Shown: positions 1,821 to 41,322 of the stretch, in pieces
Layout of the letters: every line of letters begins with the position of its first letter
Position numbering within the stretch: position 1 is the first letter of the stretch
DNA from: a virus
Lineage: Duplodnaviria; Caudoviricetes
Virus record (IMG/VR): IMGVR_UViG_3300049136_000037
Location: 1 to 42,198 of that record
Strand: one strand, 5' to 3'
DNA: 42,198 nt
The notes under the pieces: generated by a model
What the model saw: the letters and a program-made list of their open reading frames with translations, nothing else
Databases searched by the model: none
What the model was told of the DNA's origin: nothing
Made by a program: the position numbers and the translations under genes

Positions 1821-2030
1821 ATGGCCGATGAAGGCTATACAACGCAGGTAGGCCGGATGCTTTACCACCTGTTAAAAGACGATGACCCAGCGTACATCCC
1901 TTTAGAGCCTGATAGCAACCAAACAATTAGCCAACAAGTAAAACGACGGGTTACAACCCAACATCCCGACGGCACGATCGAGTCTGTCGAAGAAACCATC
2001 ACCCAAACTAGAACCACTTTCGATAGATAG
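1821..2030 (+). CDS. Hypothetical protein
   Basis: ATG 1821 preceded by AGGAGAAGGGGG; first gene of a tight operon. Confidence 0.55.
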   Translation: MADEGYTTQVGRMLYHLLKDDDPAYIPLEPDSNQTISQQVKRRVTTQHPDGTIESVEETITQTRTTFDR

Positions 2031-2040
2031 GGGCAGTGTC

Positions 2041-2256
2041 ATGGAAGCTTTCATTTTTGCCGTAGTGCTTATGGGATCAATTTTTGTTGTGCTGTGGTTC
2101 CTGCTGTCCAAGAAGGGCCAGCGCGCCGTCTTGAAGACTGACATCAAGCGTGAGATGCGTCGCGGCATGCGTGAGGAAGAGCTTATTGACGGTCTGCACG
2201 AACAGGCAGCTCGGGAGATCATCGAAGAAGAGAGGCGAAAGAAGGGACGTGCGTAA
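2041..2256 (+). CDS. Small membrane protein (N-terminal TM helix, charged tail)
   Basis: Hydrophobic AFIFAVVLMGSIFVVLWFLLS; AGGGG SD-like sequence. Confidence 0.7.
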   Translation: MEAFIFAVVLMGSIFVVLWFLLSKKGQRAVLKTDIKREMRRGMREEELIDGLHEQAAREIIEEERRKKGRA

Positions 2257-2428
2257 GGTTTGGGAAGCACTTGCCCTATTCGTCATCATCATCATTGTCC
2301 TAAGCATCGTCTCTGACGCTATCCAGCCGTACATGCCCATTATCGGCATCACGGCAGCGGCACTAATCCTGATCGCCTTAGTGATCCTTCTCTTTCGGTT
2401 GGTCATATCCAGACGTAAGTTCTGGTAG
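2249..2428 (+). CDS. Small two-TM membrane protein
   Basis: GTG at 2249 overlapping the upstream gene end; two hydrophobic helices and a basic C-terminus (RRKFW). Confidence 0.7.
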   Translation: MRKVWEALALFVIIIIVLSIVSDAIQPYMPIIGITAAALILIALVILLFRLVISRRKFW

Positions 2429-2478
2429 AAAAAGCCACGTTGTGCCAAAGTAACTGCAGGCATGGCGTGGCTTTTTCT
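2427..2478. terminator. Long hairpin flanked by A and T tracts (bidirectional terminator-like)
   Basis: AGAAAAAGCCACG...CGTGGCTTTTTCT 13-bp inverted repeat, extendable via TGCC/GGCA. Confidence 0.65.
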
Positions 2479-2518
2479 TTCCCTCACACTTCCACCGACA
2501 CTATTCATCGGAGTGCTT

Positions 2519-4708
2519 GTGATGAAGCTGCAAAGCCAAGCTCAACTTGATCATGACCGTAAGACCTACGTTCTGACGTTCCCCCAGGATCTCTCTGAGG
2601 ATCGCGTACAAGCATGGCTACGGGCAGTTAGCGGCACCCTTCACGCTAGGCAGTCCCTTTTAGATGGCATCCCGACCATCGTCTTTGAAACCTGGTCTAG
2701 TGCAGCCGGCATCGAACACAGAATCAAAGTTCCGTGGCAGCACGCCGATGACATCATGTCTCAGCTACGTACTCACCTCCGCGGCCTTCGCTATGAACCG
2801 GCGTCTACCTTCCCGCGCCATGAGTGGACCTATGCTGTCGAGATTGGCGAGAGCAATCCCGAGAGAAGTCTGCGGATGATTAACGCCAACGACACGGCCG
2901 CTTCCATCCTGACTTCAATCGGTCAACTCAAGAATGATGAAGCTTTGGTCATGCAGTGGGTAGTGGCGCCAAGTAGACCGCAGCGCTTACCGGAAGACGG
3001 AGCTAGAACTGCTGCCTTCAGCTTTAGGAGTCTGCTCGGGATACCTGAAGCGAGCAAGGATGAACTCGCGGATCGTCGTAAGAAACTGAGTGAACCTAAC
3101 TTCCATGCCGTACTTCGCGTTGCTGCAAAAGCTGAAACGAGGCCAAGAGCAGAGAAGATGGTCGGCAACGTCCGATCTTCCTTTACTGCACTAAACGCCC
3201 CTGACAATCGCTTCATCGAAATGCGCGTAACCAAGTCCAAGCTGCAAGAGCGCATCGACAGAGCAGCAACGTCGTTGAACCTACCGATGACTCTTGCCAT
3301 CTCAGAACTTATCCCGCTCATTGCCTACCCGATTGGTGGGCCGATGGTAGCGGGACTCCCCCGGTCAGCTAGTCGCCATCTTCCAGCACCAGCGTCAGTT
3401 GCCCTTGAAGGGCTCAGTATCGGACGCAGCAATTTCCCTGGCAATGAACGGCCCCTCGCGCTTGAGTGGGCCGATATAACCAAGCACATCCACCTAACCG
3501 CACCGACCGACTCAGGTAAGACAACCACGCTAGCGAATTTCGGTAAGCAGGTTGCTGAGCAAGGCATGGGCATGATGGTGCTTGAAGTTAAAGACGACCT
3601 CTTTGATGCGATGCTCGACTACATACCGAGTGACCGAATTGACGATGTCATCATCCTGAACGTGCACGATACGGCAACGCCGGTCGGATACAACCTGCTT
3701 AGTGGCAGTGACCCAGGACGGGTGATCGATGAGATTGAAAAGACCATGCTTCACATCTACGGCTCAGGCTCCGATGTCTGGCTGAAGAAGATGATGTTCC
3801 ATGGCCTCAAGACCCTCATGACTCGGCCAGGGATGACCATCGCTGATCTGCCTGCTCTGCTGTCCCCGAATCATTCAGAGGTTGCGTGGCGGGATGAACT
3901 GATCCAGGAACTCAAAGACCAAGACTTGATTGAGTTTTGGAAGAACTTCAAAAAGAAATCTGAAGAGAAACGCGAACAACAAGTACAGCCTGTCCTAGAC
4001 CGCTTCTGGCACTTCAACTCGCGCCCTGAACTACGTAACGTGTTCGGTCAAAGCAACAGCACGTTTTCGATGAGGGAAGCCGTCGCTAACAACAAGATCG
4101 TGCTGGTAAACCTCACAAACGTAGAGGCCACATCAGCTATGTTCATTGCTTCTATGCTGGTGGGTGACTTGTGGAAAGCGGTGAGGTCTAACAAGCCAGA
4201 CAAACCGTTCGTTCTGTTTGCCGATGAAGTGCAAGACATCGTGCGTATGCCGATTAAGCTGGACCAGATGCTTGCCCAAGCTCGTTCTTACAACCTGTCG
4301 ATCATCATGGCGAACCAGAGTGTTAGCCAGCTACCCGATGAAGTGATTGCAGCAGCGCAGAACAACGCTCGAACTAAGATTGTCTACCAGCTTGAGCATG
4401 ACGACGCCGTTAAGACAGCGAAGATGTTCGGTTCTGGCGTCACACCTAGCGACCTGATGAACCTCGCAAAGCATGAGGGATACGCCAGGCTCTACACGCC
4501 AACTGGGGTGAGTGCACCCCTAAGTCTTGTCGCCAATCCCCCAGCAGACTCGACCGGTAACAGGTGGAAGGTTCTTCAAAAGAGCCGTGACACCTACGGA
4601 CGAGACGTACTGGAGATTGGACAACAGATCAAGCAACGGCGTACAGCAAGAAAGACCGATCCTGCTAAGCGGCCAGAAATCGGTATCAAGCCTTGGGGTA
4701 AGAACTAG
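2519..4708 (+). CDS. Type IV coupling protein-like ATPase (VirD4/TraG/TraD, HerA-FtsK superfamily)
   Basis: Walker A HIHLTAPTDSGKTT, Walker B FVLFADEVQD, coupling-protein motifs QARSYNLSIIMANQSVSQL and NARTKIVY. Start uncertain (2462, 2519 or 2522). Confidence 0.85.
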   Translation: MMKLQSQAQLDHDRKTYVLTFPQDLSEDRVQAWLRAVSGTLHARQSLLDGIPTIVFETWSSAAGIEHRIKVPWQHADDIMSQLRTHLRGLRYEPASTFPRHEWTYAVEIGESNPERSLRMINANDTAASILTSIGQLKNDEALVMQWVVAPSRPQRLPEDGARTAAFSFRSLLGIPEASKDELADRRKKLSEPNFHAVLRVAAKAETRPRAEKMVGNVRSSFTALNAPDNRFIEMRVTKSKLQERIDRAATSLNLPMTLAISELIPLIAYPIGGPMVAGLPRSASRHLPAPASVALEGLSIGRSNFPGNERPLALEWADITKHIHLTAPTDSGKTTTLANFGKQVAEQGMGMMVLEVKDDLFDAMLDYIPSDRIDDVIILNVHDTATPVGYNLLSGSDPGRVIDEIEKTMLHIYGSGSDVWLKKMMFHGLKTLMTRPGMTIADLPALLSPNHSEVAWRDELIQELKDQDLIEFWKNFKKKSEEKREQQVQPVLDRFWHFNSRPELRNVFGQSNSTFSMREAVANNKIVLVNLTNVEATSAMFIASMLVGDLWKAVRSNKPDKPFVLFADEVQDIVRMPIKLDQMLAQARSYNLSIIMANQSVSQLPDEVIAAAQNNARTKIVYQLEHDDAVKTAKMFGSGVTPSDLMNLAKHEGYARLYTPTGVSAPLSLVANPPADSTGNRWKVLQKSRDTYGRDVLEIGQQIKQRRTARKTDPAKRPEIGIKPWGKN

Positions 4709-5049
4709 TTAGCAGCGTGGTAGGCGTCTTGAATGGACTGAGCTACGCGCCCACGCTCTGACACGTCATAGCCGTTGTCTTTTGCCCACTGGCGGATCTT
4801 CTGAAGCTCTTCTTTGTTTCCACCGGGCTTCCGCATGGTTGACGGACCCTGTGCACTCGCACGAGGAAGACGAGCGGTTACCTTAGCGGCCTTTTCGATG
4901 TACCTGTTGAGGAAGTTCTCAAGTTCCTCAGCGTTCTTATCGGTCAAGTCAATCTCGTACTGGTCATCGCCCCAGCCGAACTTGTATGAGGATGCGCCTT
5001 CTGAGCCATCCAGGTCATCACGAACTATGGTGATCGTTTCTTTTGCCAT
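4705..5049 (-). CDS. lsr2: Lsr2 family nucleoid-associated protein / xenogeneic silencer
   Basis: DDLDG...YEIDL dimerization domain; IRQWAKDNGYDVSERGRV with the RGR AT-hook. Confidence 0.95.
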   Translation of the reverse strand: MAKETITIVRDDLDGSEGASSYKFGWGDDQYEIDLTDKNAEELENFLNRYIEKAAKVTARLPRASAQGPSTMRKPGGNKEELQKIRQWAKDNGYDVSERGRVAQSIQDAYHAAN

Positions 5050-5161: not shown

Positions 5162-5398
5162 CTATTCTTCTGGTGGTGTGAGAAGCTGCTTGATGGTCAC
5201 GAACACTGCATTGATGCCGCCAACCAGTGACGCTCCCACTAAGCCGACAGCTAGGTTGACTACCGTTGTTTGCCCGCTAATGGCTGCGTTTACGAAATCT
5301 AGCCCGACTAACGTTATGGTTCCCAAGAAGCCGGATACAAAGGAGTATCCGAGCGCTTTTAGGATCTTAGCTGCCTGTTCTTTGGTTATTGGGGTCAT
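5162..5398 (-). CDS. Putative holin
   Basis: 78 aa with two hydrophobic segments, just downstream of the endolysin. Confidence 0.65.
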   Translation of the reverse strand: MTPITKEQAAKILKALGYSFVSGFLGTITLVGLDFVNAAISGQTTVVNLAVGLVGASLVGGINAVFVTIKQLLTPPEE

Positions 5399-5407
5399 AC
5401 GTTGTCC

Positions 5408-5494
5408 TTATAAGTGTTCATTAGGTTTGTTGTGGCATCTGTATCCAAGCCTCTGCTTCTTGCAAAGCCCAAAATGATGAAAAAACTGCTGCAT
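5408..5494 (-). CDS. 28-aa His/Cys microprotein (MQQFFHHFGLCKKQRLGYRCHNKPNEHL)
   Basis: ATG overlaps the endolysin TGA, AAGGAG SD; fills the gap up to the holin RBS. Confidence 0.45.
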   Translation of the reverse strand: MQQFFHHFGLCKKQRLGYRCHNKPNEHL

Positions 5495-6408
5495 CACTTC
5501 TCTCCTTTTTCTTTACGATTTATTAGCCAGTCCAGGAACGACAAGGCGGCTTTCCAGATGCTCCTGTTCTTGGCATCCTGATCTTGGGTTGCGGCGGCTT
5601 CGGCTTCCTGCTTGGCGATGAGTTCGGCCGCAGCCGCCTTTTCTGCAGCAACGCGAGCTTCTTCAGCTTCGAGCGCTTTGCGCGCGGCTTCTGCTTCCGT
5701 CGCGAAGCGGTCTTGCTCGGCCTTCTGTGCAGCGAGGCGAGCTTCCTCTTGACGTTTAGGCTCGGCATCTTTTGCAGCTTGGGCCGCTGTCGCTTTGAGA
5801 GCCTGAAGATTTCGATACTCCTGGGAACTGGCTAGGTCGGAGCGGACAAAATCAAGCGGCTTCTTGGTGTAGGTATCGATGCCACCCTGGTCGGCTTCGC
5901 GCTCCAGGATGTCTCGGTAAGCTTGGCGTACTTGATCAACGGTCGCGTTGGGTACGGAAGCAACGACGAACTGACTAGGGTCAATGCGACCCGCGAAGCC
6001 GTTCTTGAAGTTCGGTGCCAGCGGTAGGGCTTCGAAATGAAGATGAGGGCCTGTTGCAGCGCCAGTTGAGCCGACATTGCCGATGTGTTGCCCCTTGCTT
6101 ACCCGCTGCCCTTTGCTGACAGTCGTGCTGCTGAGATGGGCATATCCCGAGTAGACTCCTCCGTTATTGATGAGAACGCAGATGCCGGCCGGCGCGCCCA
6201 TCCAAGAGTGGTTTTGCCCCCATCCTTCAAAGGCGACAGTGCCTTCATCTGCTGCAAAAACCGGCGTCCCTACCGGTGCAGCGTAGTCATCACCGTTATG
6301 GCCGTTGTAGCCAAGAACCTGCTTGTAGTACCAGCGTCCATCCGCCTGCCGAAAGTCTGCTCCAAAGCGTTGGGTTATATTTGCGTTAATTGGTTTCTGA
6401 AAGCTCAT
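5494..6408 (-). CDS. Endolysin, M23 metallopeptidase with C-terminal helical/coiled-coil region
   Basis: HNGDD (HxxxD), YAHL and TGPHLHFE motifs; Ala/Glu/Lys coiled coil; amphipathic C-terminus. Confidence 0.9.
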   Translation of the reverse strand: MSFQKPINANITQRFGADFRQADGRWYYKQVLGYNGHNGDDYAAPVGTPVFAADEGTVAFEGWGQNHSWMGAPAGICVLINNGGVYSGYAHLSSTTVSKGQRVSKGQHIGNVGSTGAATGPHLHFEALPLAPNFKNGFAGRIDPSQFVVASVPNATVDQVRQAYRDILEREADQGGIDTYTKKPLDFVRSDLASSQEYRNLQALKATAAQAAKDAEPKRQEEARLAAQKAEQDRFATEAEAARKALEAEEARVAAEKAAAAELIAKQEAEAAATQDQDAKNRSIWKAALSFLDWLINRKEKGEK

Positions 6409-6423
6409 TCATGTTGTCTCCGT

Positions 6424-6939
6424 TTATGGCTTATATATGCTCCCTGGCAGGTCGTCCAAGATTGTTTGAATCGCTGGTCCAAACCGGCCCTGGGTGCCGG
6501 TCCTCTCCGGTTCCGGAGGCGCGCTCGTCGTGGGATAGTTCACCGACGGCTGCGTTGTATCAACTAGTGGCGCTGGAGCAGCTGCAGCCGGCGGCTGGAA
6601 TACTTGGCCCGATTCTGTAAGACCACTCGATGGTTCCACCTCACCCGTTTCACCGCACTTAGCGAAGTTCTCATCTGTACGCTCGATCTCGGGCAGCAGG
6701 ACGATGCAACGGATGTAGCGCTGCGTCTTCTTATGCTCTTTCTGGTTCTCTTCTAGAGCTTTAGCAAGAGATTTTTGTGCTTTCGCGTCCTGGTCGAGAC
6801 GCTGAGTGTCAATGCTCGACTGCAGGTTGGTCAGCTGAATAAACTGAAAGACAACCAAGATGAGCACGATGAAAGCGGCCCGCTTATAGACAGCGATACC
6901 AACACCCTGCGCGATCTCAACGAACTTAGTCCCACTCAT
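6424..6939 (-). CDS. Membrane protein (TM, coiled coil, Pro-rich tail) in the lysis region
   Basis: ATG 6939 overlaps the upstream TGA (ATGA); TM AAFIVLILVVFQFI. Confidence 0.65.
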   Translation of the reverse strand: MSGTKFVEIAQGVGIAVYKRAAFIVLILVVFQFIQLTNLQSSIDTQRLDQDAKAQKSLAKALEENQKEHKKTQRYIRCIVLLPEIERTDENFAKCGETGEVEPSSGLTESGQVFQPPAAAAPAPLVDTTQPSVNYPTTSAPPEPERTGTQGRFGPAIQTILDDLPGSIYKP

Positions 6940-7148
6940 CTCTTCATCCCCGCGATCTTGATGAAGTCTTTTGAGATCGACAGACCAAGTATCCAGAAGA
7001 CAATGTCGGGGACCGAGTCGGAGTAGACGGCGTTGATGAGTACGCACAGGACGAGCCCAACAACCGAGACGATAGCAAGGGCCGTATCGCTCTTTTCCTC
7101 CACCTCGCGTTTGAGTGGCTGAGAGACGGACTCATGTCGCTTGACCAT
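6936..7148 (-). CDS. Small two-TM membrane protein (holin-like)
   Basis: ATG 7148; two hydrophobic segments; coupled to both neighbours. Confidence 0.6.
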   Translation of the reverse strand: MVKRHESVSQPLKREVEEKSDTALAIVSVVGLVLCVLINAVYSDSVPDIVFWILGLSISKDFIKIAGMKR

Positions 7149-7254
7149 GTCTCTGCTTCCACGCGGCGTACACCTCGGCAATAAGAAGCGGAAGGGTAGC
7201 TCTCATGCCCCAACCGATCAGTCCCCCGACTATGGCGCTTAAGATGTCGATCAT
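7132..7254 (-). CDS. 40-aa hydrophobic microprotein (MIDILSAIVGGLIGWGMRATLPLLIAEVYAAWKQRHGQAT)
   Basis: Manual translation; fills the gap and overlaps the next start. Confidence 0.5.
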   Translation of the reverse strand: MIDILSAIVGGLIGWGMRATLPLLIAEVYAAWKQRHGQAT

Positions 7255-7276
7255 ATGGAGCAGCCCTTGCCCATCA

Positions 7277-8206
7277 CTATGTCCTGCTCACTAAGAAACC
7301 GTTGAAAAACGTAACGTTAGCCCCAATTACTACATCTCGGCTTTCCGAGCAAAAGGCGAAAACCTCTAAGTAATCTCCAGCATTAAGATATTCCAATGAT
7401 GAAATGGCGTGACGAGGCAGTGTACGTGCATCCCCGCTGCCGGCTAGACGCTGTGACGATTTCTTATAAGCACCATTGACGTAGAATAGCGCCTCAGACG
7501 AACCGCCAGTTCCGGCGCTGCCAATTCCAACTTGGATATTGATTTGATAATAGCCGCTAAGAGGAACGACGTAGCGGTTGTTGGTGGTATCGAAGTTATT
7601 GTTGGTGTCGAAAGTTTTTGCGCTGAAAGGTACCTTGATAGTCCCACCGGCACCTGTACTAGGGCTAGTAGTTGTATAGACACTGAACTTGTAGGGGTTA
7701 CTTAGCTGGCCTGCAGGGAGGACTACCCCACTGCTTGGTGAAACGAATACACGCTTGTCGGTGATGTTTGCGTTAGTGATTTGGGTGACGCCGTTTCCAA
7801 CAGCTATCTGCGCCAAGATTATGTAGGGATTAGCAGCCCCGATGGCAGCTTGAATCTGGCTCATTGTCGGTACGCTTGGGGACCCTGCTGGCGTACCTGC
7901 AACAGAGGCGAACTTGAGGACGTTATTTGTGTTGTTGACGTTGTTTGCGACTGTAGAACCGGCAACCGCCTTATCCACATAGGCCACAATGTAGTCGATA
8001 CGCGGCGAGCTATTTGCTGTCGCGATTGTCACGGACTCATTAGCGCTCGTGTCATGGCTGATTAGGTAGCCATAGCTAGCCGGATAGGTGCCGGTAGTGA
8101 TCCTGCCGGAACCGGGCTTCACCTGAACCGTCATGTTTGCCGTGGCGGCGGCGACAACCTGAAAGCCCTCAACAACGTCTCCGACCCAAAGGCGGTTGAT
8201 CAGCAA
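7277..8206 (-). CDS. Tail fibre / receptor-binding protein with C-terminal C1q/TNF-like beta-sandwich
   Basis: PRIDYIVAY and LAQIAV...ITDKR baseplate-type motifs; C1q-like FDTNNNFD...RYVVPLSGYYQI...LNAGDYLEV...FNGFLV. The frame stays open upstream to 8284. Confidence 0.75.
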   Translation of the reverse strand: MLINRLWVGDVVEGFQVVAAATANMTVQVKPGSGRITTGTYPASYGYLISHDTSANESVTIATANSSPRIDYIVAYVDKAVAGSTVANNVNNTNNVLKFASVAGTPAGSPSVPTMSQIQAAIGAANPYIILAQIAVGNGVTQITNANITDKRVFVSPSSGVVLPAGQLSNPYKFSVYTTTSPSTGAGGTIKVPFSAKTFDTNNNFDTTNNRYVVPLSGYYQINIQVGIGSAGTGGSSEALFYVNGAYKKSSQRLAGSGDARTLPRHAISSLEYLNAGDYLEVFAFCSESRDVVIGANVTFFNGFLVSRT

Positions 8207-8329
8207 ATCCGTACCGTATTCGTCCGTAGTTCCGCCATTATATGAACGAGTTTTGAAATAGCGCTTAGTCTCTTTTATGTTTGATTATGTTCTTAATGTA
8301 AAACATCGAGCCCTTTTTGAATAGCCCGA

Positions 8330-8765
8330 TTATGGCGTCACGGTCACTGCAGAGTAGGAGGCTGGAGAGATAGTCCAGAAGGTAAAGCCCACACTAACGG
8401 ACGTATATGTCAGACCGTCACTCTTCATATAGACGCGGAACTTCTGTACTCCATCAACCGGTGGCAAGGGGTCGTATCGATAAAAGACATCTCCGCCCCC
8501 AGGGGTGGTCAGAATGTTGATAGCGAAATCAAAGGCCCGGGTTTTTTGCAGCAGTATTCGGCGTCAGGGTGATCTCGATGCACTGAGGCGTCGTCGTCAG
8601 GTTGGTTAGCGTGTGATCCACGTTGGTGTTCGGGTTGGCCACCCGGTATATGCGAACCGTGCTCGCGCCGAATGTTTGATCCGCACGTATCTCATCGAGC
8701 GTTCGCCGATAGTAGAGAAGCTTTTCCTCCAGCTGAGCATCGGCTTCCTGATCCAGCCGACTCAT
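8330..8765 (-). CDS. Tail-tip protein, third paralog of a tandem set, broken by a +1 frameshift near 8530-8547
   Basis: ORF 8765-8529 ends at CTT TGA; the +1 frame continues DFAINILTTPGGGDVFYRYDP...SAVTVTP to TAA at 8330-8332, giving about 145 aa like its neighbours. Confidence 0.7.
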
Positions 8766-9229
8766 ACGATCCTCGCGTAGGTCACGGACACAGGAGCGGT
8801 GCTGTAGATACGGGCCTTGAAGTAGAACGTGCTCGCGCTGACCGCGTTTCTAGCCCCGATAGTGAACCAGTACTGCATCACCATTGGATCGTCGGTGATG
8901 AGCTTGTTGTAGAGGATCTGGTAATTGCCCGAGAAGTTGTCCCTATACGGGGTGCTCATGTTTGGTATCCACACTTCCGGCGTAAAGGCGGACAGAAAGC
9001 TGCCGCTATCTGTGGAGGTGGCCGTGACGATGAGGGTTGCAAGGGGCTGGTTACCACCTGCTGAGGCAGCGAGTGCACCTGTGAGGTCATAGGCGATTGC
9101 GCTGGAGTATTCGTACATCCTGGCCTCGGTGTACTGACGGCCAGTTTTCAGTTCGCGAAGAGTGACACCGATGTTCCTGGTGTCTTCCAGAATCTTATTT
9201 TCGGGTTGTTGGTTGATTCTCGTCGTCAT
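8762..9229 (-). CDS. Putative tail-tip/minor tail protein
   Basis: Position after the gp37-like gene; N-terminal coiled coil then beta-rich domain; AGGAG SD. Confidence 0.65.
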   Translation of the reverse strand: MTTRINQQPENKILEDTRNIGVTLRELKTGRQYTEARMYEYSSAIAYDLTGALAASAGGNQPLATLIVTATSTDSGSFLSAFTPEVWIPNMSTPYRDNFSGNYQILYNKLITDDPMVMQYWFTIGARNAVSASTFYFKARIYSTAPVSVTYARIV

Positions 9230-9236
9230 AGGTCTC

Positions 9237-9719
9237 CTAGAATGTCAGCTCCAAGGCAGTGCCCTTACACGACGCCATGACGCGGATCTTCAGGTAGATA
9301 GAGGCACCGCTTGCCCCAGCAGAAACGCCGATGATCCAGGTCATCTTGTTCGGACCAATAAACGGTGATGGTCTGGTCGCTGAGCTGAAGTAATAGGTGC
9401 CGGTGATGTCCCGCTGCTGGTAGTCGGAGAGACGATTCCCGCTCGATGTCCCGTTGTTGTAGATCTGGCAGTACTGGATGCCGTAGGGCTGTGGCTGGGT
9501 GCCGTCACCCGTGAATGTCAGGTAGAAGTAGCGGACCGTGTTCGCCGGAATACTGTGAGCGACGATGTCGAAGGTGTTGCTTGTCTGTGAGGTGAAGGAT
9601 CGTTTGACCAAGCTACTCGCCGTGGGCTGACGGCTCTTAAGCTCAGCTAGATCGTGCTGCAGTCCTTCAAGCGTCGACTTTAGATTGTGTTCGACCTGCT
9701 GGCTAAGCCGATCATTCAT
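9237..9719 (-). CDS. Putative tail-tip/minor tail protein
   Basis: Same architecture as its neighbours; overlaps the upstream stop. Confidence 0.65.
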   Translation of the reverse strand: MNDRLSQQVEHNLKSTLEGLQHDLAELKSRQPTASSLVKRSFTSQTSNTFDIVAHSIPANTVRYFYLTFTGDGTQPQPYGIQYCQIYNNGTSSGNRLSDYQQRDITGTYYFSSATRPSPFIGPNKMTWIIGVSAGASGASIYLKIRVMASCKGTALELTF

Positions 9720-10836
9720 CCTGGTCGACTCCGTAGCTGTCGAAGGTCAGGTCAATCGCACTCTCGAAGTCGTTCTCATCGATAGTCACGTCCATTTTTT
9801 CGATGCGGTAAAGGCCGTCGATATTGGCAAGCCAAGGGTGGTCATTTACCTTCAGCGGTATCCGGTCCCCAACGCCGAGGAACGTACCGCGAATCTCTTT
9901 ACCTGTGACGGTGATCTTAGGAAGCTCCAGGATGTCCTTGGAGAGGGCCACGGCTCCCAAAGTGTTCTGGTCTAGTGTCGGCTGGAGGATGACGCTGTTG
10001 AACTGGACGATATTCTCGCGCACGTAGTACTTCAGCTGGCTAACGGTGTCGACCTGCGTGCTTTGTAGCTGATCTGCGCCAAAACCGGACCCGATGCCGT
10101 AGACCTTGTTGTAGAGATTGATAGCGCTGCGCCCTAGTTGGAAGCCGGCCACGTTACCTAGCGGCCCACCGTAAATGAACTGAATGTCCGTCCGCCTCGC
10201 TCCGATCTGCTCATACGCCCTGAACTGCTTGTCCCAAGTGAAATCAAAGTCGAAGTTGCCGTCCTGAAGCTGGGTGAGTTCCTGAATCTTCAGCTTTACG
10301 TTGTCACGCTGGTAGGTACGGTCGCGCGTGATGCCAGTCGCGTAGGAACTCCCGATCGTGACGCCGACACTGCCGTTTGTTTGCGCCTGAGTCGTTGTAA
10401 GCAGGTCTGAAGCTATTGAAGTTGCTTCCATGCCTGAATACGTCTTGGTGACGTAGCGGTCCTTAAAGAGGTTTAGATAGCCCGTACACGTGATCGTGAC
10501 TCGGTAGTCCGTGGGGTTAACTCCATTACCCGCTCCGCTGTTCTTTAGGTCAAAGGACACATCAATTACTTGGGCGCCAAACAGATACTGACCGTTTCGC
10601 TTCACCTTGATGTCGGTGACGTACGGAGCGATGATCGTGCTTGGATCGATACCGCCGAGATGGTCCCGGCAGTAGGCCTCGAAGGCAAAGAGATTGACGC
10701 TAAAGGTGAGCGTTTCAGCTTCGTTGCGCTGGCGGGTGTAGCGGCGGTCAAAGCAATAGGCAGAGATATCAGCAATACGACTGCCGGTAGCACTCCAGAC
10801 CTCGAACTCATACAGGCGTTTCTTACCGAAGTCCAT
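9712..10836 (-). CDS. Minor tail protein, siphovirus ReqiPepy6 Gp37-like (Tal/hub position)
   Basis: Follows Dit; motifs NKVYGIGSG and GVGDRI...YRIEKMDVTI; typical size. Confidence 0.75.
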   Translation of the reverse strand: MDFGKKRLYEFEVWSATGSRIADISAYCFDRRYTRQRNEAETLTFSVNLFAFEAYCRDHLGGIDPSTIIAPYVTDIKVKRNGQYLFGAQVIDVSFDLKNSGAGNGVNPTDYRVTITCTGYLNLFKDRYVTKTYSGMEATSIASDLLTTTQAQTNGSVGVTIGSSYATGITRDRTYQRDNVKLKIQELTQLQDGNFDFDFTWDKQFRAYEQIGARRTDIQFIYGGPLGNVAGFQLGRSAINLYNKVYGIGSGFGADQLQSTQVDTVSQLKYYVRENIVQFNSVILQPTLDQNTLGAVALSKDILELPKITVTGKEIRGTFLGVGDRIPLKVNDHPWLANIDGLYRIEKMDVTIDENDFESAIDLTFDSYGVDQDE

Positions 10837-11676
10837 CTAGATGCCTCGGTACCCACTCCTCCAGGAGACGGTAGCAACGACAGTGTCGGAGCTGTTTGTG
10901 GAGGTAAGACTGATGCTGTTTTCACCCGGCAGGAGTGCCCACCAGCTACTTGCAATGGTCACACTTGGCAGAACCGATCCACCGTTGAGCAGGACGGTGC
11001 GGTTGTACATGTCGATCACCAGGAGATCGCCGGCAGCTGTAGTGAAGCCATTTAGAGCGAAGAAGTCTCCTGTCGTGGTGTTTGTGATCATTGGGTTGCT
11101 CATCTGATTCGTCAGCGTGATGCGCGGATAAAGCGGGACATCGCCCGTGTTGTTGATGACTGTTGGCGTTGCTCCTGGCTTCCACTCCACCGGATTCCAT
11201 ACAATCGGCCACGTCACTCCCCCGCCCGTTGAAAGATTGACTACTGCACTCATGCCACCTGAAGACGAGTTGTCATAGATGGTCGGATCAGCAGCAATGA
11301 GCGAGATCTTGAATGGTGACTTACTAGCCGCACGGATAATCGGCATGTCCAAGCTGTCGAGGTAGCAGTTGATCAGGTACTGGTTGCCAGCGTTAGTCGT
11401 GATCGTCAGAGCAATCGTGGAACTAGCCACAGCCGCGGCAAGGTTTCTGCGAGCGGTTTCTAGCTCCGCTGCGTCGTTCGAGAAGATTCGTCCGGTCAGA
11501 GTGATTAGGCGCATCCCGTAGAACTGCGCGCTTACATAGCCACCATCTCGGCCGCTGTAGTTGCCAGCTGAAGTACGGACAGGCGGTAGGCCAAGACCTT
11601 CAATTGGTTCGTCCAAATAGCACTGATTGACGCTGTTTGGATCGTTGAGGATGAAGCCGTTTAGTGCGTAAATCAT
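10837..11676 (-). CDS. Distal tail protein (Dit)
   Basis: Directly after the TMP (ATGA overlap); motifs AADP, NTGDVPLYP, WWALLPGENSI. Confidence 0.85.
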   Translation of the reverse strand: MIYALNGFILNDPNSVNQCYLDEPIEGLGLPPVRTSAGNYSGRDGGYVSAQFYGMRLITLTGRIFSNDAAELETARRNLAAAVASSTIALTITTNAGNQYLINCYLDSLDMPIIRAASKSPFKISLIAADPTIYDNSSSGGMSAVVNLSTGGGVTWPIVWNPVEWKPGATPTVINNTGDVPLYPRITLTNQMSNPMITNTTTGDFFALNGFTTAAGDLLVIDMYNRTVLLNGGSVLPSVTIASSWWALLPGENSISLTSTNSSDTVVATVSWRSGYRGI

Positions 11677-13970: not shown

Positions 13971-13989
13971 GTGGTAAATCTCAGGACAG

Positions 13990-14570
13990 CTAATTCATAG
14001 GTTGCTGTCTTATGTTTTCCAATTTAACACGTTCATCATCGAGCGACCATATCAATCGAGCCTGATAAAGTGCCTCCCAAGGCTCGTTCTCTAGTTCCAC
14101 TGCACTCAGATGGAAGCGTTCCCGGTACCTGAATTGAAAGAGCTCATCTAATAGATCTGCAGGCATTCCGGCTGCAAGATCGTGAACGATGTAATCACGA
14201 TAGTGAGCTTCGAGTTGCTCTAGATCCTCGCTTTTAAACGGTCGTTACCCGTAGCAACACTGACCGCTTCCTGGAGCCAGGAGAAGTTCATTGCTTCAAC
14301 AACGTCGGGAACATCAGTCGGTGCCACTTCTACAGGGCTGGCGACACCATTCTCGTCTGTACTCATGACGACGCCGCCCACGATGATCTCTAAGCACGCA
14401 CCGCGGATAACCCCGCTGGCATTCTCATCGTCAGTGCCTTTTTCAAGGCTTGCAAGCCACTCTTTGCGCTTCGTTTCACTTGCAGAGCGAATCAAGAGAT
14501 AGCAGTCATCCCAGCCCTCAGCAAAACCCTTTAAACTCATCTTTCGCTTAGCAACGATATATAGCGCCAT
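13990..14570 (-). CDS. Tail assembly chaperone G (14570-14220) and G-T fusion via programmed -1 frameshift ending at 13990
   Basis: In-frame slippery heptamer T TTA AAA (14238-14232); the -1 frame is open for 80 codons (SEDLEQLEAHYRD...QQPMN); lies between major tail and TMP genes. Confidence 0.88.
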
Positions 14571-14584
14571 AAAACCCTTTCAAT

Positions 14585-14623
14585 TAAAAATATGCCTCTA
14601 GTTAAACACGAGGCATATTTTTA
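14585..14623. terminator. Intrinsic terminator after the major tail gene
   Basis: TAAAAATATGCCTC / GAGGCATATTTTTA 14-bp inverted repeat. Confidence 0.75.
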
Positions 14624-14634
14624 GTAAAGCCGAA

Positions 14635-15606: not shown

Positions 15607-15763
15607 CACCTACCTCTTCTTGATTAGTTTTTTCATCTGCGATGGCTGCTTCAACGTCTGCTAGATCCGCCACTTCAACCGTTTTGCCGAGTGAAGGGAC
15701 AAAGAAAGGCTGAGTGTGAGCTTTTACCGCAGGAGTTTGCTTCTTTGTGGATTTATTAGCCAT
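15593..15763 (-). CDS. Small hypothetical virion-module protein
   Basis: ATG 15763 just after TACATT; stop overlaps the major tail start. Confidence 0.6.
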   Translation of the reverse strand: MANKSTKKQTPAVKAHTQPFFVPSLGKTVEVADLADVEAAIADEKTNQEEVGDGNS

Positions 15764-15800
15764 GTCTTTAATGTAAGGCAATTACTGCTAATTTAAAAGG

Positions 15801-17645: not shown

Positions 17646-17715
17646 GTCTGTTTCTATTTAAACATCAGGCACCAGCAATTAAAAGGCTAAGAATTCACCC
17701 TGATAGTCTTATCTG

Positions 17716-18366: not shown

Positions 18367-18367
18367 C

Positions 18368-18410
18368 AAAAAAGCGGGCACCGACCCAGTTGGCCGACGC
18401 CCGCCTTTTC
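18368..18410. terminator. Bidirectional terminator
   Basis: AAAAAAGCGGGC...GCCCGCCTTTT between convergent genes. Confidence 0.6.
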
Positions 18411-18416
18411 TGTTAC

Positions 18417-27488: not shown

Positions 27489-27500
27489 TCACGCAGTCTG

Positions 27501-29195: not shown

Positions 29196-29264
29196 AGCGG
29201 GAGTCACGCTTTCCGTCGAGTCAGCAAGGATGCACAAGAGAGTGCTCGCCCACGAAGGAAGTTA

Positions 29265-31387: not shown

Positions 31388-32019
31388 TTACCACCACGTG
31401 GCTTTCTTGATAATCGTGCCGTAGTTGTTGGTGCAGCTTCCGATACATAACCAATACGCCTTAGCCTTAGTCCAGGTCCCATAGCGTCCAGTCATGTAGT
31501 TGGTGAACCACTCGTCCTGACAGGCGTAGTCGTCCAGGGAACAAGGCAGCTTGCTACACGGAAGTGCTTGGCCGATCCCGCACGCGCCTGACTCAGGATT
31601 GATCGCGTTGGTACGGTTGCCGCTTTCCCTAAAATAGATGAACTCCTTAGCCTCTGCTTCAACATCGCCTGTGGCTTGCGGAGAGGCCGGCTGCGGCTGT
31701 TCTGCCACGCTTACCGGCTCATCAGCCGTCTTTGGTTCTTCCGCTTCAACTGGAGGCTCCGGCGTCGTTGCTACCTTCTTTATTCGAACAGCGCTGGTAG
31801 CTACTACTGCTCTACGGTTTTTGACACGATCTTCATGTCTTGAACCACTGATGCACGAGCGTCACTGTGAATGTTGATGCTGACGAAGTATCCGCCGATC
31901 AGTCCCAGGCTTCCGAACACGAAGGCTGTGATGACAACTGTCTTCACTGTCTCCCAGTTGATGCCCTTTTTAGGTGCGTCTAGGCTCTGTGGTTTTACTG
32001 CTGCTTCTTTGCTTGTCAT
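31388..32019 (-). CDS. Membrane-anchor ORF (32019-31804) plus lysozyme-fold transglycosylase-like domain (to 31388), probably joined by a -1 frameshift
   Basis: Catalytic-type motif IYFRESG..TNAINP.SGACGIGQ...Q...FTNYMTGRYGTW..AKAYW; the Pro/Glu linker is encoded in the -1 frame from TCA AAA ACC (31824-31816). Confidence 0.75.
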
Positions 32020-36156: not shown

Positions 36157-36867
36157 TCATGACAGCAATAAGCCAGGGAAACTTTCTTGCTTCTGGACTC
36201 TGAACAACTCCGTAGCCTCTTCAGGGCCGCTATTGATTAGCCAGGCGATTTCCTTCAATCGATCATCATCAGGCACCAGGAAGAGCACACGCGGGTATAC
36301 GGCCATATCTGCCTCCGTGGCGTGTTGGTAAGCGTGCCAGTAACGGGCGAGCTTTTCCTTTAGTTGCTTTTGGCGCTCTGTGCCCATGTCTATTTCTATC
36401 CAGAGGCTAATACTCATGCGCTTGCTGGGGATGCCTAGTTCAACGTAGAGATCGGGGCGAAGGTCCGCACCTGCTATTACTCGCCACGTATCCGGCTCTG
36501 TTGCCATGCCTATTACTTCTATGGTCCCCTCACGTTCCAAGCGCTTCAGACCTATGAAGGCATCAGCTATAGCAAGCGTGTGATAGTGAACAGACCTGTA
36601 TGGGTAACCAGTCTCCCGCCCTATGTACTTACGTCCTTGTGTGCCGAGCTGGTACACGTAATGACCCGAGCCGGCCCCTGTTCCGCCGATGAGCCGCCGT
36701 TCAATCCGTGACAGATGACGAGACTTGAGAAGCCTATTTAGAGCACGGCTAGGACGTGTAGGGCTTGAACCACCATGGAAAAGAAGCTCCGAAATTTGGC
36801 CGGAAGTGAGCTGTCCAAAGCGGGAAACAGCCTGGACAATTTGACGGTCGCGATCGGTCGCAAACAT
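36157..36867 (-). CDS. Replication-relaxation (Replic_Relax, PF13814-like) family relaxase/replication protein
   Basis: N-terminal wHTH TDRDRQIV...LTSGQI..LLF...YQLGTQG; HTLAIAD; LRPDL...WIEIDMGTE...KLARY...FLVPD. Leaderless ATG 36867 after TACACT. Confidence 0.88.
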   Translation of the reverse strand: MFATDRDRQIVQAVSRFGQLTSGQISELLFHGGSSPTRPSRALNRLLKSRHLSRIERRLIGGTGAGSGHYVYQLGTQGRKYIGRETGYPYRSVHYHTLAIADAFIGLKRLEREGTIEVIGMATEPDTWRVIAGADLRPDLYVELGIPSKRMSISLWIEIDMGTERQKQLKEKLARYWHAYQHATEADMAVYPRVLFLVPDDDRLKEIAWLINSGPEEATELFRVQKQESFPGLLLS

Positions 36868-36996
36868 GCTCTTAGTGTATACGTGAGTAGTACGCGCGCC
36901 TAGAGCAATGTTTCCCCAGGTCAGACGCGGTTTGGGCGGTAGCGACCTCCACATCACCTGCACACCCGAAACCACACGACAGATGTGATTGCTTAT

Positions 36997-37052
36997 TTAT
37001 CCACAGCCGAGCAAAAAATAGTATTGCTTATTGTGCGCTAATGCTTCATAGT
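36997..37052 (+). promoter_or_regulatory. Promoter/operator copy 3 with perfect DnaA box, driving the rightward early operon
   Basis: TTATCCACAGCCGAGCAAAAAATAGTATTGCTTATT; TTGCTT-N17-CATAGT. Confidence 0.75.
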
Positions 37053-37160
37053 GATGCACAGCGAAAGCGAGCCAACAATTATTAGGGCTTATGCAATTAG
37101 CTAACTATCCAATAAACAGCACTAACAAAGGGGTAAGTATCATCATAAAGGATTCTCACA

Positions 37161-37418
37161 ATGCCAAAACCAATCACCTTCAAACGACCACCAAAGGTAA
37201 AGGGCCATGCGATGGTGCCTATGTATCTCAGAACTGACGAGATCGATAAGCAGATCGTCCAGGACTTCGCGGCCAGAGTCACAGAGACAGCAGGTATCAA
37301 AGTATCCTCAGCCAACGTCCTCATGACCAGCTTCTACCAACAGTGGCCTGAAGAACGCAAGAAAAAACTAAGACTAGAAAAGGAGGCATATGGCCGAAAA
37401 CGCACAAACAGCAGCTGA
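37161..37418 (+). CDS. Small putative DNA-binding regulator (ribbon-helix-helix-like)
   Basis: First gene after the promoter; beta strand (VPMYLRT) followed by two helices. Confidence 0.5.
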   Translation: MPKPITFKRPPKVKGHAMVPMYLRTDEIDKQIVQDFAARVTETAGIKVSSANVLMTSFYQQWPEERKKKLRLEKEAYGRKRTNSS

Positions 37419-38334
37419 TAAAGCTTCAACACAATGTATAGATCCCCAGCCGCCACAGATACCACCCGCAATCGCTAAGGCCTTGATAGCCGTCCAAAAG
37501 ACACTCAAGCCTCTTGAGCGATCAGCCGAGAACGAAGAGTACGGCAGTAGCTTTACACCTTTAGATGAGGTAGCGACGGCAGCGTATAAGTTGCTTGCCA
37601 AACACAAAATCGGTGTTTCGCAGCCGCTCACAACCCTGGATGGCTTAGCTGCAATCAGGACGATTCTGTTTTGTGAAGACGGGACCAGCTACCAGGACGT
37701 CACAAAACTAGCCCTAGCGAAGGTTGACCCGCAGAGCCACGCATCCGCGATCACTTATACACGAAGGTATGCGCTAATGGCGCAACTTGGTCTTACGTCT
37801 AAGAACGATGACGACGACGGCAACCGAGCTAGTGGAGTATTCCTGAAGCCAACCGACGAACAAATAGAGCAAATCAAGTCTCTATGTCTCGCTATGAACT
37901 ATTCCAGCAAGGACATTGCCGCTCAGGTATGGAAGATCAAGACTAGGGATCATGCAACGCTGACGATCCTGAACCTCAATAAGATGATCTCCCAGCGCGT
38001 AGGGGACATAGAGGCCTCCGATAGAGCACTGAAGATTGAACAGGGAGTGCCTGGCGGTGAACACATAACAGTAGTTACCGATGACGAGATCAACCAAGAT
38101 CCCGATTCTAAGAGCCTTGAGTATCGTCTAGACAACCTAGGACTGGCTAGCAAAGGGATGATCAATAAGTTCATCTTCTCAATCACGGGTAAGCCCTTCC
38201 TGACGAAGTGCACCCCTGCAGAGCGAAAATTACTGACTACCGCACTAAATGCTGTCGAGTCGGGGACACACGAGCTGCCCGATGAGTGGTACCCAAATAA
38301 CAAGCAGCCTGCCCCTAGGGAGCCGTCAGCATGA
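37390..38334 (+). CDS. erf: ERF family single-strand annealing recombinase
   Basis: DPQSHASAITYTRRYALMAQLGL...DDDG signature. Confidence 0.9.
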   Translation: MAENAQTAADKASTQCIDPQPPQIPPAIAKALIAVQKTLKPLERSAENEEYGSSFTPLDEVATAAYKLLAKHKIGVSQPLTTLDGLAAIRTILFCEDGTSYQDVTKLALAKVDPQSHASAITYTRRYALMAQLGLTSKNDDDDGNRASGVFLKPTDEQIEQIKSLCLAMNYSSKDIAAQVWKIKTRDHATLTILNLNKMISQRVGDIEASDRALKIEQGVPGGEHITVVTDDEINQDPDSKSLEYRLDNLGLASKGMINKFIFSITGKPFLTKCTPAERKLLTTALNAVESGTHELPDEWYPNNKQPAPREPSA

Positions 38335-39050: not shown

Positions 39051-39284
39051 ATGGCGGGCACTAAGGCGGGTGGCCTAAAAGCGGCCGCCAAGAACTTAGC
39101 TAAGAACCCCAACTTCTACGCTGAGATCGGCGCGAAGGGCGGAGCGAACGGGACCACCGGCGGTTTCGCTGCATATATGGAATGCACATGCCGACGCATT
39201 AGAGGCTCACACCACAAAGCGCAGTGCGCGGGAGCCAAGGGCGGAGCCATAAGCCGCCGCAAAAAGGCAAGCACGAGCGCTTAG
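39051..39284 (+). CDS. KGG-repeat (general stress protein-like) small protein
   Basis: MAGTKAGGLKAAAKN...FYAEIGAKGG...GGFAA...AGAKGGAISRR. Confidence 0.8.
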   Translation: MAGTKAGGLKAAAKNLAKNPNFYAEIGAKGGANGTTGGFAAYMECTCRRIRGSHHKAQCAGAKGGAISRRKKASTSA

Positions 39285-39634
39285 GCACCTGGACGCTCGG
39301 CTTGCCAACATAAGCACCTTGAGAATTGGTTGGGTCCTACAACATATATTTTACGACCCAACCAACAGGGGTGAGCCTAAAAAGCCAACGAGACCATCCC
39401 TCCCCCGAAAGTCAATGAACAGGGGTAGGGGTCTAGCGAAGTCAGCAAAACATGTTGATGCGTCTATACAAGACGTAAATCCGGTGGTCTGACTAGCAAT
39501 CAGTCAAAAGCAGCTATTTTCGCCGCTCATGCCGTCTGCTGGAAAACTAACTAACTGTTAGCGGTTTACAACCAGCAGGCGGCTTGGGTTACGACCCACA
39601 GCATAAGGACGGTCAACCGTCAAGGAACAACAGA

Positions 39635-40051
39635 ATGAAAGAAATCAAACTCAAAGTTTGGGATACGAAGCATCAATGCTGGTGGAACTTTGACGACCCT
39701 GCCGGTGACTTAGATGAAGACGCAGTCGATCTTGGCGGTGGGCATGTCATCGAGTTCAAGATGCCCGAAAGACTCAAGCTGGTGCAGTACACAGGACGCC
39801 AGGACGAGAATGATGTCGAAATCTATGCAGGCGACATCATCACTCTCATCGATAAGGCGAGCGAGTATACAGAGAAGGTCAGTCGTGAGAAGTTCGGGGC
39901 CTTCATCGTGGAGTGGTCAGAACATCTATCCGGCTGGTACCCAAAGTCTTTGAACGGATACGAACCCGACGAAACTTGGTGGGATACCTGGGAAATCATG
40001 GTTATCGGCAACATCTACGAAAACCCTGAGCTGCTTGAGGGTAAGTCATGA
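39635..40051 (+). CDS. YopX family protein
   Basis: MKEIKLKVWD...QYTG..DENDVEIYAGDII...VIGNIYENPELL. Confidence 0.92.
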   Translation: MKEIKLKVWDTKHQCWWNFDDPAGDLDEDAVDLGGGHVIEFKMPERLKLVQYTGRQDENDVEIYAGDIITLIDKASEYTEKVSREKFGAFIVEWSEHLSGWYPKSLNGYEPDETWWDTWEIMVIGNIYENPELLEGKS

Positions 40052-40209
40052 AAGTCGCCTACCCCATCCTCATAGTCGTGGCTCTTGGCTTCGTTGTATG
40101 GGACATCCTCACGCTGAACATTGACATCTACACAGGCGTGGCATCCGCAGCGCTTTTCGCTCTCACAGTTGGTCTTGGTGCTTTAGAGAAGCGGGAGCAG
40201 CAGTTATGA
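40048..40209 (+). CDS. 53-aa two-TM membrane protein
   Basis: ATGA overlaps at both ends; MKVAYPILIVVALGFVVWDIL... Confidence 0.65.
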   Translation: MKVAYPILIVVALGFVVWDILTLNIDIYTGVASAALFALTVGLGALEKREQQL

Positions 40210-40502
40210 GCGAGTTTGATAAAGCGCTGGGAAACATCGACGTGAAGTACTCAGCCAAGATAAGGCTGATTCAGAAAACTACTGTCAGCGACGATGAAGT
40301 GCTAGCCCTATTTTTGAAGGCTAAGGCCGATAAGGACGAGGCCATCAAACAAGCAGTAGATAAGTATGTGATCGGGGCAAACGTAGAAGTGCCTCCGGGA
40401 CCGCGAGCAGCGGGCAAGTCCTACGCCACTATTCACAACCGCATCAAAGAAGCACAACGTAAAAAACTATGGGGCAACCACGAGGCTGGTGATGTCTCCT
40501 GA
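40206..40502 (+). CDS. Hypothetical phage protein
   Basis: Coupled within the operon. Confidence 0.6.
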   Translation: MSEFDKALGNIDVKYSAKIRLIQKTTVSDDEVLALFLKAKADKDEAIKQAVDKYVIGANVEVPPGPRAAGKSYATIHNRIKEAQRKKLWGNHEAGDVS

Positions 40503-41322
40503 GCGCCGCACTAGAAATCCCGAACGCGAGCACGCTCAAGACATTCGGTGGGCCGAGCTGCTAGAAGAAGCGCTCACTATGCCAGGAAGCATGGGCAAGA
40601 CCTACAACCGCTTCTACAACTACAGCTTCACTAATCAGCTCCTACTCTTCATGCAGGGTGTCAGAGAGCCTGTAGCGACGTATAAGCGCTGGCAGGACAT
40701 GGGCCGACAAGTACTGAAGGGCAGCAAGGCAAAGAGCATCCTGCGGCCTGTCGCTTACAAAGAGACGAACGATAAGGGCGAGGAAGAGTCTAAAGTCAAG
40801 GGCTTCAAAATGGTCAACTGCCTGTTCACCGCTTCCGAGACTGAAGGCAAGGAACTCCCGCCGTACGAGATCCCTGATTGGAATCCGGAGCTAGCACTGA
40901 AGAACCTCAACATCGAGGAAGTGCCGTGGGACGGACTGGACGGCAACAGCCAGGGTTACAGCTTCGGACGTAAGTTCGCACTCAACCCAGTAGCGGCCTA
41001 CCCACTGAAGACGATGATGCACGAGATAGCGCACATCGAACTCGGTCACACTGCCCCAGGGTTGGCGCAAAAGGAATACCAGCAGCACAGGGGCCTAAAA
41101 GAGTTCCAAGCCGAAACGACGGCCTACCTACTGATGAACGAGCTAGAAATGACTGAACACATGGACATGGCAGAAAGCCGCTCCTACGTGCAGCACTGGC
41201 TACATGGCTTGGAGCGGCCCGATGATGCATCTATCAAGCAGGTTTTGACGGCAACCGACAAGATACTGAAGGCAGGCCGATTTGAGCCAAGTAAGGAGAC
41301 CAATGATGAAGTACGGAATTAA
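40492..41322 (+). CDS. ArdC-like ssDNA-binding/antirestriction protein with C-terminal HExxH domain
   Basis: YSFTNQLL...VATYKRWQDMGRQVLKGSKA...LFTASET; HEIAH...EFQAETTAYL...SYVQHW. Confidence 0.85.
   Translation: MSPERRTRNPEREHAQDIRWAELLEEALTMPGSMGKTYNRFYNYSFTNQLLLFMQGVREPVATYKRWQDMGRQVLKGSKAKSILRPVAYKETNDKGEEESKVKGFKMVNCLFTASETEGKELPPYEIPDWNPELALKNLNIEEVPWDGLDGNSQGYSFGRKFALNPVAAYPLKTMMHEIAHIELGHTAPGLAQKEYQQHRGLKEFQAETTAYLLMNELEMTEHMDMAESRSYVQHWLHGLERPDDASIKQVLTATDKILKAGRFEPSKETNDEVRN

Follow-up and report, generated by a model that had tools for sequence, protein, structure and literature searches.

A MOBC relaxase and a VirD4-type ATPase as fixed genes of a tailed-phage lineage of soil actinobacteria, with a candidate origin upstream of the relaxase gene

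Phages carrying the nicking and DNA-pumping genes of plasmids have been described in Bacillus, and we summarize this and other published work as excerpts of the cited papers present it. In phage 0305phi8-36, orf200 and orf201 encode a MOBC relaxase and a VirD4-like ATPase in a 'DNA translocation operon', a type shared by SPO1 (gp27.3/27.4), Gamma and GBSV1; its deletion was without laboratory phenotype, and propagation by virion-free cell-to-cell translocation was proposed (Pathria et al. 2012, PMC3357382). A table of 122 phages with plasmid genes may also bear on prior detection (PMC7969092). The concept of phage spread by a MOBC relaxase and a VirD4-like ATPase is therefore not new, and why phages keep this pair has been an open question since 2012. 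Here, we analyse the IMG/VR viral contig IMGVR_UViG_3300049136_000037 (42,198 bases, the whole of which is called the window), a prophage of an Arthrobacter-type soil bacterium that encodes such a pair together with an ArdC-like protein (Table 1). The pair is core to a whole phage lineage, is accompanied by a candidate origin and occurs in soil lysogens that are cultured and non-pathogenic (Arthrobacter sp. AL12 and A. cavernae PO-11), and therefore both virion-free spread and relaxase-driven phage replication become directly testable. This lineage of uncultured phages retains its plasmid-style nicking and DNA-pump genes as fixed parts and exchanges its particle genes. New here are the conserved element upstream of the relaxase gene, a likely frameshift in a transglycosylase gene, the frameshifted integrase and capsid genes, and the finding of no other replication gene. 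Our searches retrieved no paper on this actinobacterial lineage, which is weak evidence since they also missed Pathria et al. 2012.

The Replic_Relax protein named in the preliminary description was confirmed by PF13814 (E-value 1.4e-21, 77.9 bits for a cut-off of 25.3). Its structure model (predicted local distance difference test score, pLDDT, 88.8) combines an N-terminal winged helix-turn-helix (HTH) with a restriction-enzyme-like domain, and Foldseek returned FokI as best match (6.7e-4, template-modelling score 0.31), then MarR-type winged HTH proteins. Residues D139, E158, D160, E164 and Y176 are invariant across 41 aligned rows. Alignments were required to find relatives, a single-protein scan of viral contigs having given nothing. 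The A2 profile matched 444 clusters at E-values up to 1e-30. Phage and plasmid collections gave no relaxase match and ATPase matches only at 20-27% identity, and no annotated relaxase lies around SP-10 gp203 or phage G gp156, as judged by annotation only. Both the relaxase and the ATPase genes are under purifying selection, with ratios of nonsynonymous to synonymous substitution rates (dN/dS) of 0.06-0.40 in six pairs at a dS near saturation.

The VirD4/TraG-like identity first given to the ATPase held, but not its start: 2519 is an inner start, and the open reading frame (ORF) begins at 2462, which adds one N-terminal hydrophobic helix, the membrane anchor of a coupling protein, present in several relatives and missing from some. 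The protein scores above the Pfam cut-offs for TrwB_AAD_bind (8.5e-10), T4SS-DNA_transf (2.3e-9) and TraG-D_C and under that for HerA_C (19.5 vs 22 bits), and a 47-row profile places DotL (8.5e-10) and TrwB (1.3e-8) above HerA (5e-4). Structural comparison of the model (pLDDT 88) ranks the VirB4 C-terminal domain (Z 29.6, root-mean-square deviation (rmsd) 3.2, 329 residues aligned) and TrwB (Z 28.8, rmsd 4.3, 365 aligned) ahead of DndH (28.6), DotL (26.2), archaeal HerA (24.6) and defence HerA (22.2 or less). We class it as an ATPase of type IV secretion systems (T4SS), and it is sequence and not fold that settles VirD4 vs VirB4. The closest named relatives are those of Pseudarthrobacter sp. 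H2 and Arthrobacter sp. AL12 (66%). As a separate observation, the 1100-aa ATPase ORF of record G049 (L292:10176-13475) has an insertion of ~340 aa directly before Walker A, an intein-like position, with no Pfam match at 1e-5.

The preliminary description had left room for a HerA-type defence ATPase, and T4SS ATPases rank above defence HerA in both profile and structure. The same data bear on the idea that the ATPase operon is a lysogenic-conversion cassette for defence or exclusion, unrelated to the relaxase's job, which we consider quite improbable. The operon does lie at the prophage end and adjoins the integrase gene, PADLOC mad8 also fits the ATPase domain (6.8e-18), DndH scores close to TrwB, and the correlation between ATPase and relaxase (see below) weakens after thinning. 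However, defence HerA structures score well below TrwB, the neighbours are small transmembrane (TM) genes and Lsr2 with no effector adjoining, defence cargo (the restriction-modification pair, for example) is scattered over the lineage but no member that has this end is without the ATPase, and the ATPase adjoins the relaxase in homologous integrative mobilizable elements (IMEs).

The two genes lie 31 kb apart and flank the virion module, in agreement with the distance of more than 30 kb reported initially. Excision, it had been suggested, may bring them closer; judged from the full copy G001, it leaves them ~13 kb apart and not adjacent. That the pair belongs to the phage and not to a nested IME, as had been argued, is borne out by its co-occurrence in relatives and by three full copies (45, 58 and 59 kb) lying between both comM halves. 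A distinct IME, whether inside an ordinary prophage or next to one, is indeed already contradicted, even though closely related virion-less elements exist: in each of the three full copies there is a single full-length integrase and comM is split into a single pair of halves, both genes are in two records with terminal repeats, and GC content is uniform across the element. A single pair of attachment (att) sites encloses the mobilization module and the virion genes. The element has the gene set of an IME, with integrase (frameshifted in this copy), relaxase and coupling protein and without T4SS, and it lacks the mating-pair genes of an integrative and conjugative element (ICE). It is neither an ICE nor a nested IME but resembles a phage assembled on the chassis of an IME.

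Co-occurrence was followed in 22 fetched relatives, each chosen by ATPase or relaxase, so that counts of these two genes are biased. Both genes are in 20 of the 22, the other two records ending before the ATPase block; the relaxase is found in 22 (one broken), the ATPase and Lsr2 in 20 each, and ArdC in 19 and in none of four virion-less regions. Records picked by ATPase hold the relaxase in 14/16 cases (four of them being bacterial genomes with virion-less elements), and the misses are fragments of 17 and 23 kb. Relaxase-picked records hold the ATPase in 12/32 cases; 15 of the remaining 20 were fetched and all lack the end with the ATPase block, and the other five are unfetched fragments of 24-29 kb. 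Among 52 portal-picked loci, 11 on longer, previously untested records were searched: both genes are in the two long records whose portal identity reaches at least 54% (54-58%), the relaxase is in one 28-kb fragment, neither gene is in three fragments of 17-23 kb, and the lineage's pair is missing from five at 36-45% portal identity. Virion modules vary on this backbone, with three unrelated portal types (Mu-like, HK97-like and SU10-like); portal type hardly follows the backbone, since it changes 7 times on the ATPase tree vs 8.3 times for shuffled labels (35/300 as low). The lineage is rare in genomes, with 3/401 Micrococcaceae genomes at phage-level scores and the seed genome only among 401 of its class. 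No close relative was found among 50,697 deposited phage records, and plaque isolation has therefore apparently missed it.

The preliminary description had proposed to check the pair for co-occurrence and congruent phylogenies. The pair co-occurs, and the distances of the ATPase follow those of the relaxase (r=0.51, p=0.001, n=20; partial r=0.45) more closely than those of its neighbours integrase (0.00) and Lsr2 (0.16) or of virion genes (not significant). This points to coupling but is suggestive only, because kin share genes. The predicted ATPase-relaxase complex scored 0.00, which counts neither for nor against.

Virion-less elements of three Streptomyces and one Amycolatopsis carry the same small genes, ATPase and relaxase within ~4 kb. 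A related relaxase occurs in 27/401 Saccharimonadia genomes (best E-value 1e-42, vs 1e-62 or better for phage members), and four of six loci inspected there have a compact ATPase-relaxase-integrase set. These elements (G584, G662, G700 and G666), with ATPase, MOBC relaxase and serine integrase, are sister to the actinobacterial ones, and one has an Lsr2-like gene 10 kb off. A phage of this lineage residing in Saccharibacteria was considered but did not turn up in the genomes searched, the relaxase scores being weak and no match to the virion profiles of the lineage lying within 30 kb at the six loci. On a derivation of the IMEs from these phages by loss of the virion module, the data point both ways: in the MOBC tree the near IMEs branch from within the phages (Shimodaira-Hasegawa-like approximate likelihood ratio test support 95, in a quick tree with a long branch), but for the ATPase an approximately unbiased (AU) test does not reject phage monophyly (p=0.52). 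Two further arrangements were seen. In two Streptomyces genomes the near IME itself harbours another, distant ATPase-relaxase element, which has a tyrosine integrase (L194:8734-13704 and L197:1697-6561), and the distant provirus G051 (L311:13257-15576) has a different, adjacent pair of VirD4-like and Replic_Relax genes near a tyrosine integrase.

The region directly upstream of the relaxase gene is a conserved cis element that contains the relaxase promoter, a TGACC motif at -56, three repeats spaced ~12 bp (as read from the alignment), a box at 36997-37005 which we take to be a DnaA box, an AT-rich tract and a divergent promoter-like site. Among 32 distinct upstream regions, the TGACC-type motif (by the pattern used) is found in 12 for a background of 8%, and the DnaA-type box in 24 for a background of 3.4%; the virion-less elements inspected have repeats upstream of the relaxase but no DnaA-type box. 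Such a layout fits an origin of transfer (oriT) and an iteron origin alike. Over its whole length, the window has five exact DnaA-type boxes (7971, 32639, 34526, 34969 and 36997), two of them within near-identical promoter-like copies at 32611-32650 and 36997-37032, which suggests host-factor control of phage promoters.

Matches to a primase, helicase, polymerase or Rep protein were found neither in the window nor in 123 ORFs from five relatives, of which two are complete (ORFs of at least 90 aa, known backbone genes excluded). DnaB or DnaG, by contrast, is encoded in two distant portal relatives that lack the pair. ICE relaxases are known to start rolling-circle replication as well (PMC3218068); pXO1-16 is described as an initiator, in passages that give no link to PF13814 (PMC4219350). 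A role of the relaxase in replication is as well supported as a role in transfer. One may then ask whether the module serves inside the cell only, the relaxase-family protein being a replication initiator and the ATPase anchoring or pumping phage DNA at the membrane or septum. This is unlikely in our view, yet a serious contender: no other replication gene was recognised, the box, tract and repeats resemble an iteron origin, the family is listed for plasmid replication besides relaxation (PMC3424549), the FtsK/Replic_Relax operons of Bacillus phages are interpreted as serving replication or segregation (PMC11526630, PMC9658697), and no helper was found in four hosts. It is harder to reconcile with an ATPase profile nearest to coupling proteins, with a homologous module that defines virion-less integrated elements having no other visible route of spread, and with the frequent presence of ArdC.

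As reported beforehand, mating-pair genes are not visible: neither VirB4 nor another mating-pair Pfam family was detected among the 77 window ORFs scanned of 197 listed, nor were mating-pair genes among the 123 ORFs of the relatives. The ATPase and the two small membrane proteins encoded upstream of it might form a self-sufficient minimal channel without T4SS, as in Streptomyces TraB-type systems. The conservation of the one-TM and two-TM genes directly upstream of the ATPase in phages and IMEs would suit this, as would the likeness of the whole-length ATPase model to TrwK/VirB4 (551 aligned, rmsd 15.9), the ability of actinobacterial conjugation to use one translocase (PMC3218068) and the failure to find a helper in four hosts. 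Yet no conserved polytopic (VirB6-like) membrane protein appears in the cluster list, the small proteins fit no pilin or VirB3 family (the two-TM protein has no family in Pfam or Atlas), and the wall enzyme is accessory, so that such a channel appears improbable. Outside the Actinobacteria, the T4SS of Patescibacteria are mostly without relaxase (PMC12102498), and Patescibacteria grow on Actinobacteria (PMC12857230); a patescibacterial T4SS as helper channel is a lead, not evidence.

Taken as a whole, what the preliminary description observed is confirmed, and its interpretation as a second, contact-dependent route of spread is supported in part. The reading that we favour, tentatively and at just short of an even chance, is nick-initiated replication combined with mobilisation in trans. 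After excision, the relaxase would likely nick the circle within the conserved element that precedes its gene, the nick would likely start rolling-circle replication, and the ATPase would probably pass the nicked strand into the mating channel of some other element, with ArdC as the likely protector of the strand that enters the recipient. Several observations weigh against it. The VirB4-family domain PF12846 was not found in the four Micrococcaceae lysogen genomes searched, which are drafts, and hence no resident helper was found (it is present in the Amycolatopsis genome). When each tight clade is reduced to a single member (n=13), the correlation of the pair falls to r=0.27 (p=0.10), and in G032/G036 the ATPase moves apart from the relaxase. 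The DnaA-type box may be regulatory, because it also precedes the second promoter-like copy at 32611-32650, and the cis element shows no unusual fold (z +0.8). To these add the structural tie between VirD4 and VirB4 and the mad8 match given above. Finally, the similar operon of 0305phi8-36 was dispensable in the laboratory, a result that lends no support to a replication role in that phage (PMC3357382). A broader proposal, rather speculative, is that one relaxase is the only initiator of replication and also initiates transfer, the DNA leaving by virion or by a borrowed channel, and that the element exchanges its virion module as a whole and may turn into an IME by losing it; the relaxase-less T4SS of Saccharibacteria, which attach to the hosts of the phage, might be that channel, because sister ATPase-relaxase-integrase elements exist in both Saccharimonadia and Actinobacteria.

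Table 1. Coordinates of the features of the prophage in the window
Feature	Position	Strand	Evidence or remark
Host comM / Mg-chelatase-like gene, C-terminal part	3..257	-	Pfam PF01078, 7.8e-33
Large serine integrase	306..1732	+	Resolvase, Recombinase and Zn_ribbon Pfam matches; frameshift near 1022-1025
Small gene heading the ATPase operon	1821..2030	+	ORF, no family; positional equivalent in virion-less elements
Small one-TM membrane protein	2041..2256	+	No family; in most relatives a one-TM protein gene occupies this place upstream of the ATPase
Two-TM hairpin protein, 59 aa	2249..2428	+	Kept directly before the ATPase in phages and IMEs
VirD4-type coupling ATPase, N-terminal DUF8128-like domain, Walker A and B intact	2462..4708	+	748 aa
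Lsr2-like nucleoid protein, backbone gene	4705..5049	-	Pfam 3.7e-18; in 20/22 relatives
Lysis and virion module (M23 endolysin, Dit, tape measure, tail tube, Mu-like portal and protease, terminases)	5162..25772	-	
XhoI-like type II restriction-modification cargo	26754..29237	-	
TM anchor and lysozyme-like domain	31388..32019	-	Two ORFs in different frames; NF052397, 1.2e-18
MOBC / Replic_Relax protein, winged HTH and PD-(D/E)XK-type nuclease, leaderless start	36157..36867	-	
Conserved cis element, candidate oriT/ori	36868..37060	-	Function predicted
Small divergent gene, possibly ribbon-helix-helix (by eye)	37161..37418	+	No Pfam match
ERF single-stranded DNA-annealing protein	37390..38334	+	Pfam 7.6e-19
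ArdC-like protein	40492..41322	+	ArdcN above cut-off (1e-8)

A TM-linked lysozyme-fold protein had been counted in the mobilization toolkit. The link stands only through a probable frameshift, there being two ORFs and not one continuous gene. In all ten loci examined (three of them nearly identical), the stop of the TM ORF follows a Ser-Lys TCA AAA by a few codons, and a lysozyme-like domain devoid of start codon continues in the -1 frame; the candidate site lies at ~31819-31824 on the minus strand, and at least two different catalytic domains stand behind the same TCA AAA. These sequence features make a programmed -1 frameshift anchoring the transglycosylase likely, and a pseudogene was rejected in view of the same arrangement in 10/10 loci. 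As a member of the toolkit the enzyme did not hold up: it is accessory and not core, with tblastn matches in 10/51 sequences, and some other lineage members have a PF00912 transglycosylase or a LysM-SLT protein.

The ArdC-like protein anticipated by the preliminary description is supported by its ArdcN domain and by an HExxH motif at residue 177, MPTase-PolyVal being marginally under cut-off. The full virion gene set was likewise recovered (terminase, portal, protease, capsid, tail and M23 endolysin genes) and, with the integrase, is that of a temperate tailed phage, capsid and integrase being intact in relatives. In order, the element comprises the comM part, the serine integrase, three small genes, the ATPase, Lsr2, the lysis and siphovirus-type virion module, the XhoI-like restriction-modification (R-M) pair, the Replic_Relax gene and, running the opposite way, an early operon that includes ERF, YopX and ArdC. 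In relatives the integrase and the major capsid gene are single ORFs; here each has a frameshift (that of the capsid gene near 19409-19427), and the window copy is therefore probably defective, while the ATPase, relaxase and ArdC genes are intact. Both breaks are inside single contigs of the sole run containing this DNA, which may be the source of the record; no excised-circle joint was found in that run, the only matching DNA run and thus possibly not independent, and no RNA run was listed as containing this DNA.

The host gene comM serves natural transformation, and insertion of the prophage breaks it. The comM fragment at 3-257 is 94% identical to that of Arthrobacter cavernae and 91% to that of Arthrobacter sp. 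AL12, its GC content is 66% vs 52-56% within the element, attL lies at ~257, and it is at 257 that a contig of run X1 diverges. The right end is absent, ~4 kb including attR being missing by comparison with the AL12 copy. This integration site, where the Walker B codons are split, is common to the window (~257) and records G001, G002, G239, G339, G030, G040 and G036. The XhoI-like R-M pair is complete in the window and in none of 26 records compared; relatives have BglII/MT-A70 or MmeI-type systems instead. Other genes deserve mention: a 316-aa orphan ORF of no family (32678-33628, minus strand) with 15-bp tandem repeats at 33318-33437; an unnamed family of 110 aa (L179:1624-1959), a candidate recombination directionality factor, which together with DUF3846 is found at the element end in most phages and in the IMEs; and, in G007 (L131:11538-14159), a portal fused to a 2H phosphoesterase / Acb1-like domain.

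Among described systems, streptococcal IME_Class_8 elements (PMC5357655) share the serine integrase, VirD4 and Rel_PF13814/MobC without mating-pair genes, but are compact and without virion genes, whereas a full tailed-phage genome is present here. The MOBC relaxases TraX of pAD1 and MobC of CloDF13 have the same winged HTH and restriction-enzyme-like nuclease, and the direct repeats that form the pAD1 binding site are a layout fitted by the repeats found here (PMC12857230); these relaxases are plasmid-borne with known transfer, whereas nicking is predicted here and the likeness to TraX is by description. Among Patescibacteria, the DUF8128-type VirD4 proteins (PMC12102498) are the nearest cellular relatives of the ATPase beyond actinobacterial elements (24-28% identity, same N-terminal domain), and their 74 loci are chromosomal, without relaxase in the flanks examined. 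Isolated virion-forming temperate Bacillus phages (PMC9658697, PMC11526630) also carry a translocase, a PF13814 protein and small membrane or ribbon-helix-helix genes, with VirB2 in addition; they differ by an FtsK/SpoIIIE motor and by adjacent genes, read as replication or segregation functions, and Novomoskovsk and Bolokhovo have their own helicase, primase and polymerase, none of which was recognised here. With 0305phi8-36, the lineage shares a tailed phage, a CloDF13-MobC-like relaxase, a VirD4-like ATPase and membrane proteins. Unlike in that phage, where a single operon includes VirB6- and MreB-like genes (no Pfam match to either here), the genes are split around the virion module, and the pair is core to an actinobacterial comM lineage, in which ArdC and a conserved element upstream of the relaxase gene accompany it and further replication genes were not seen.

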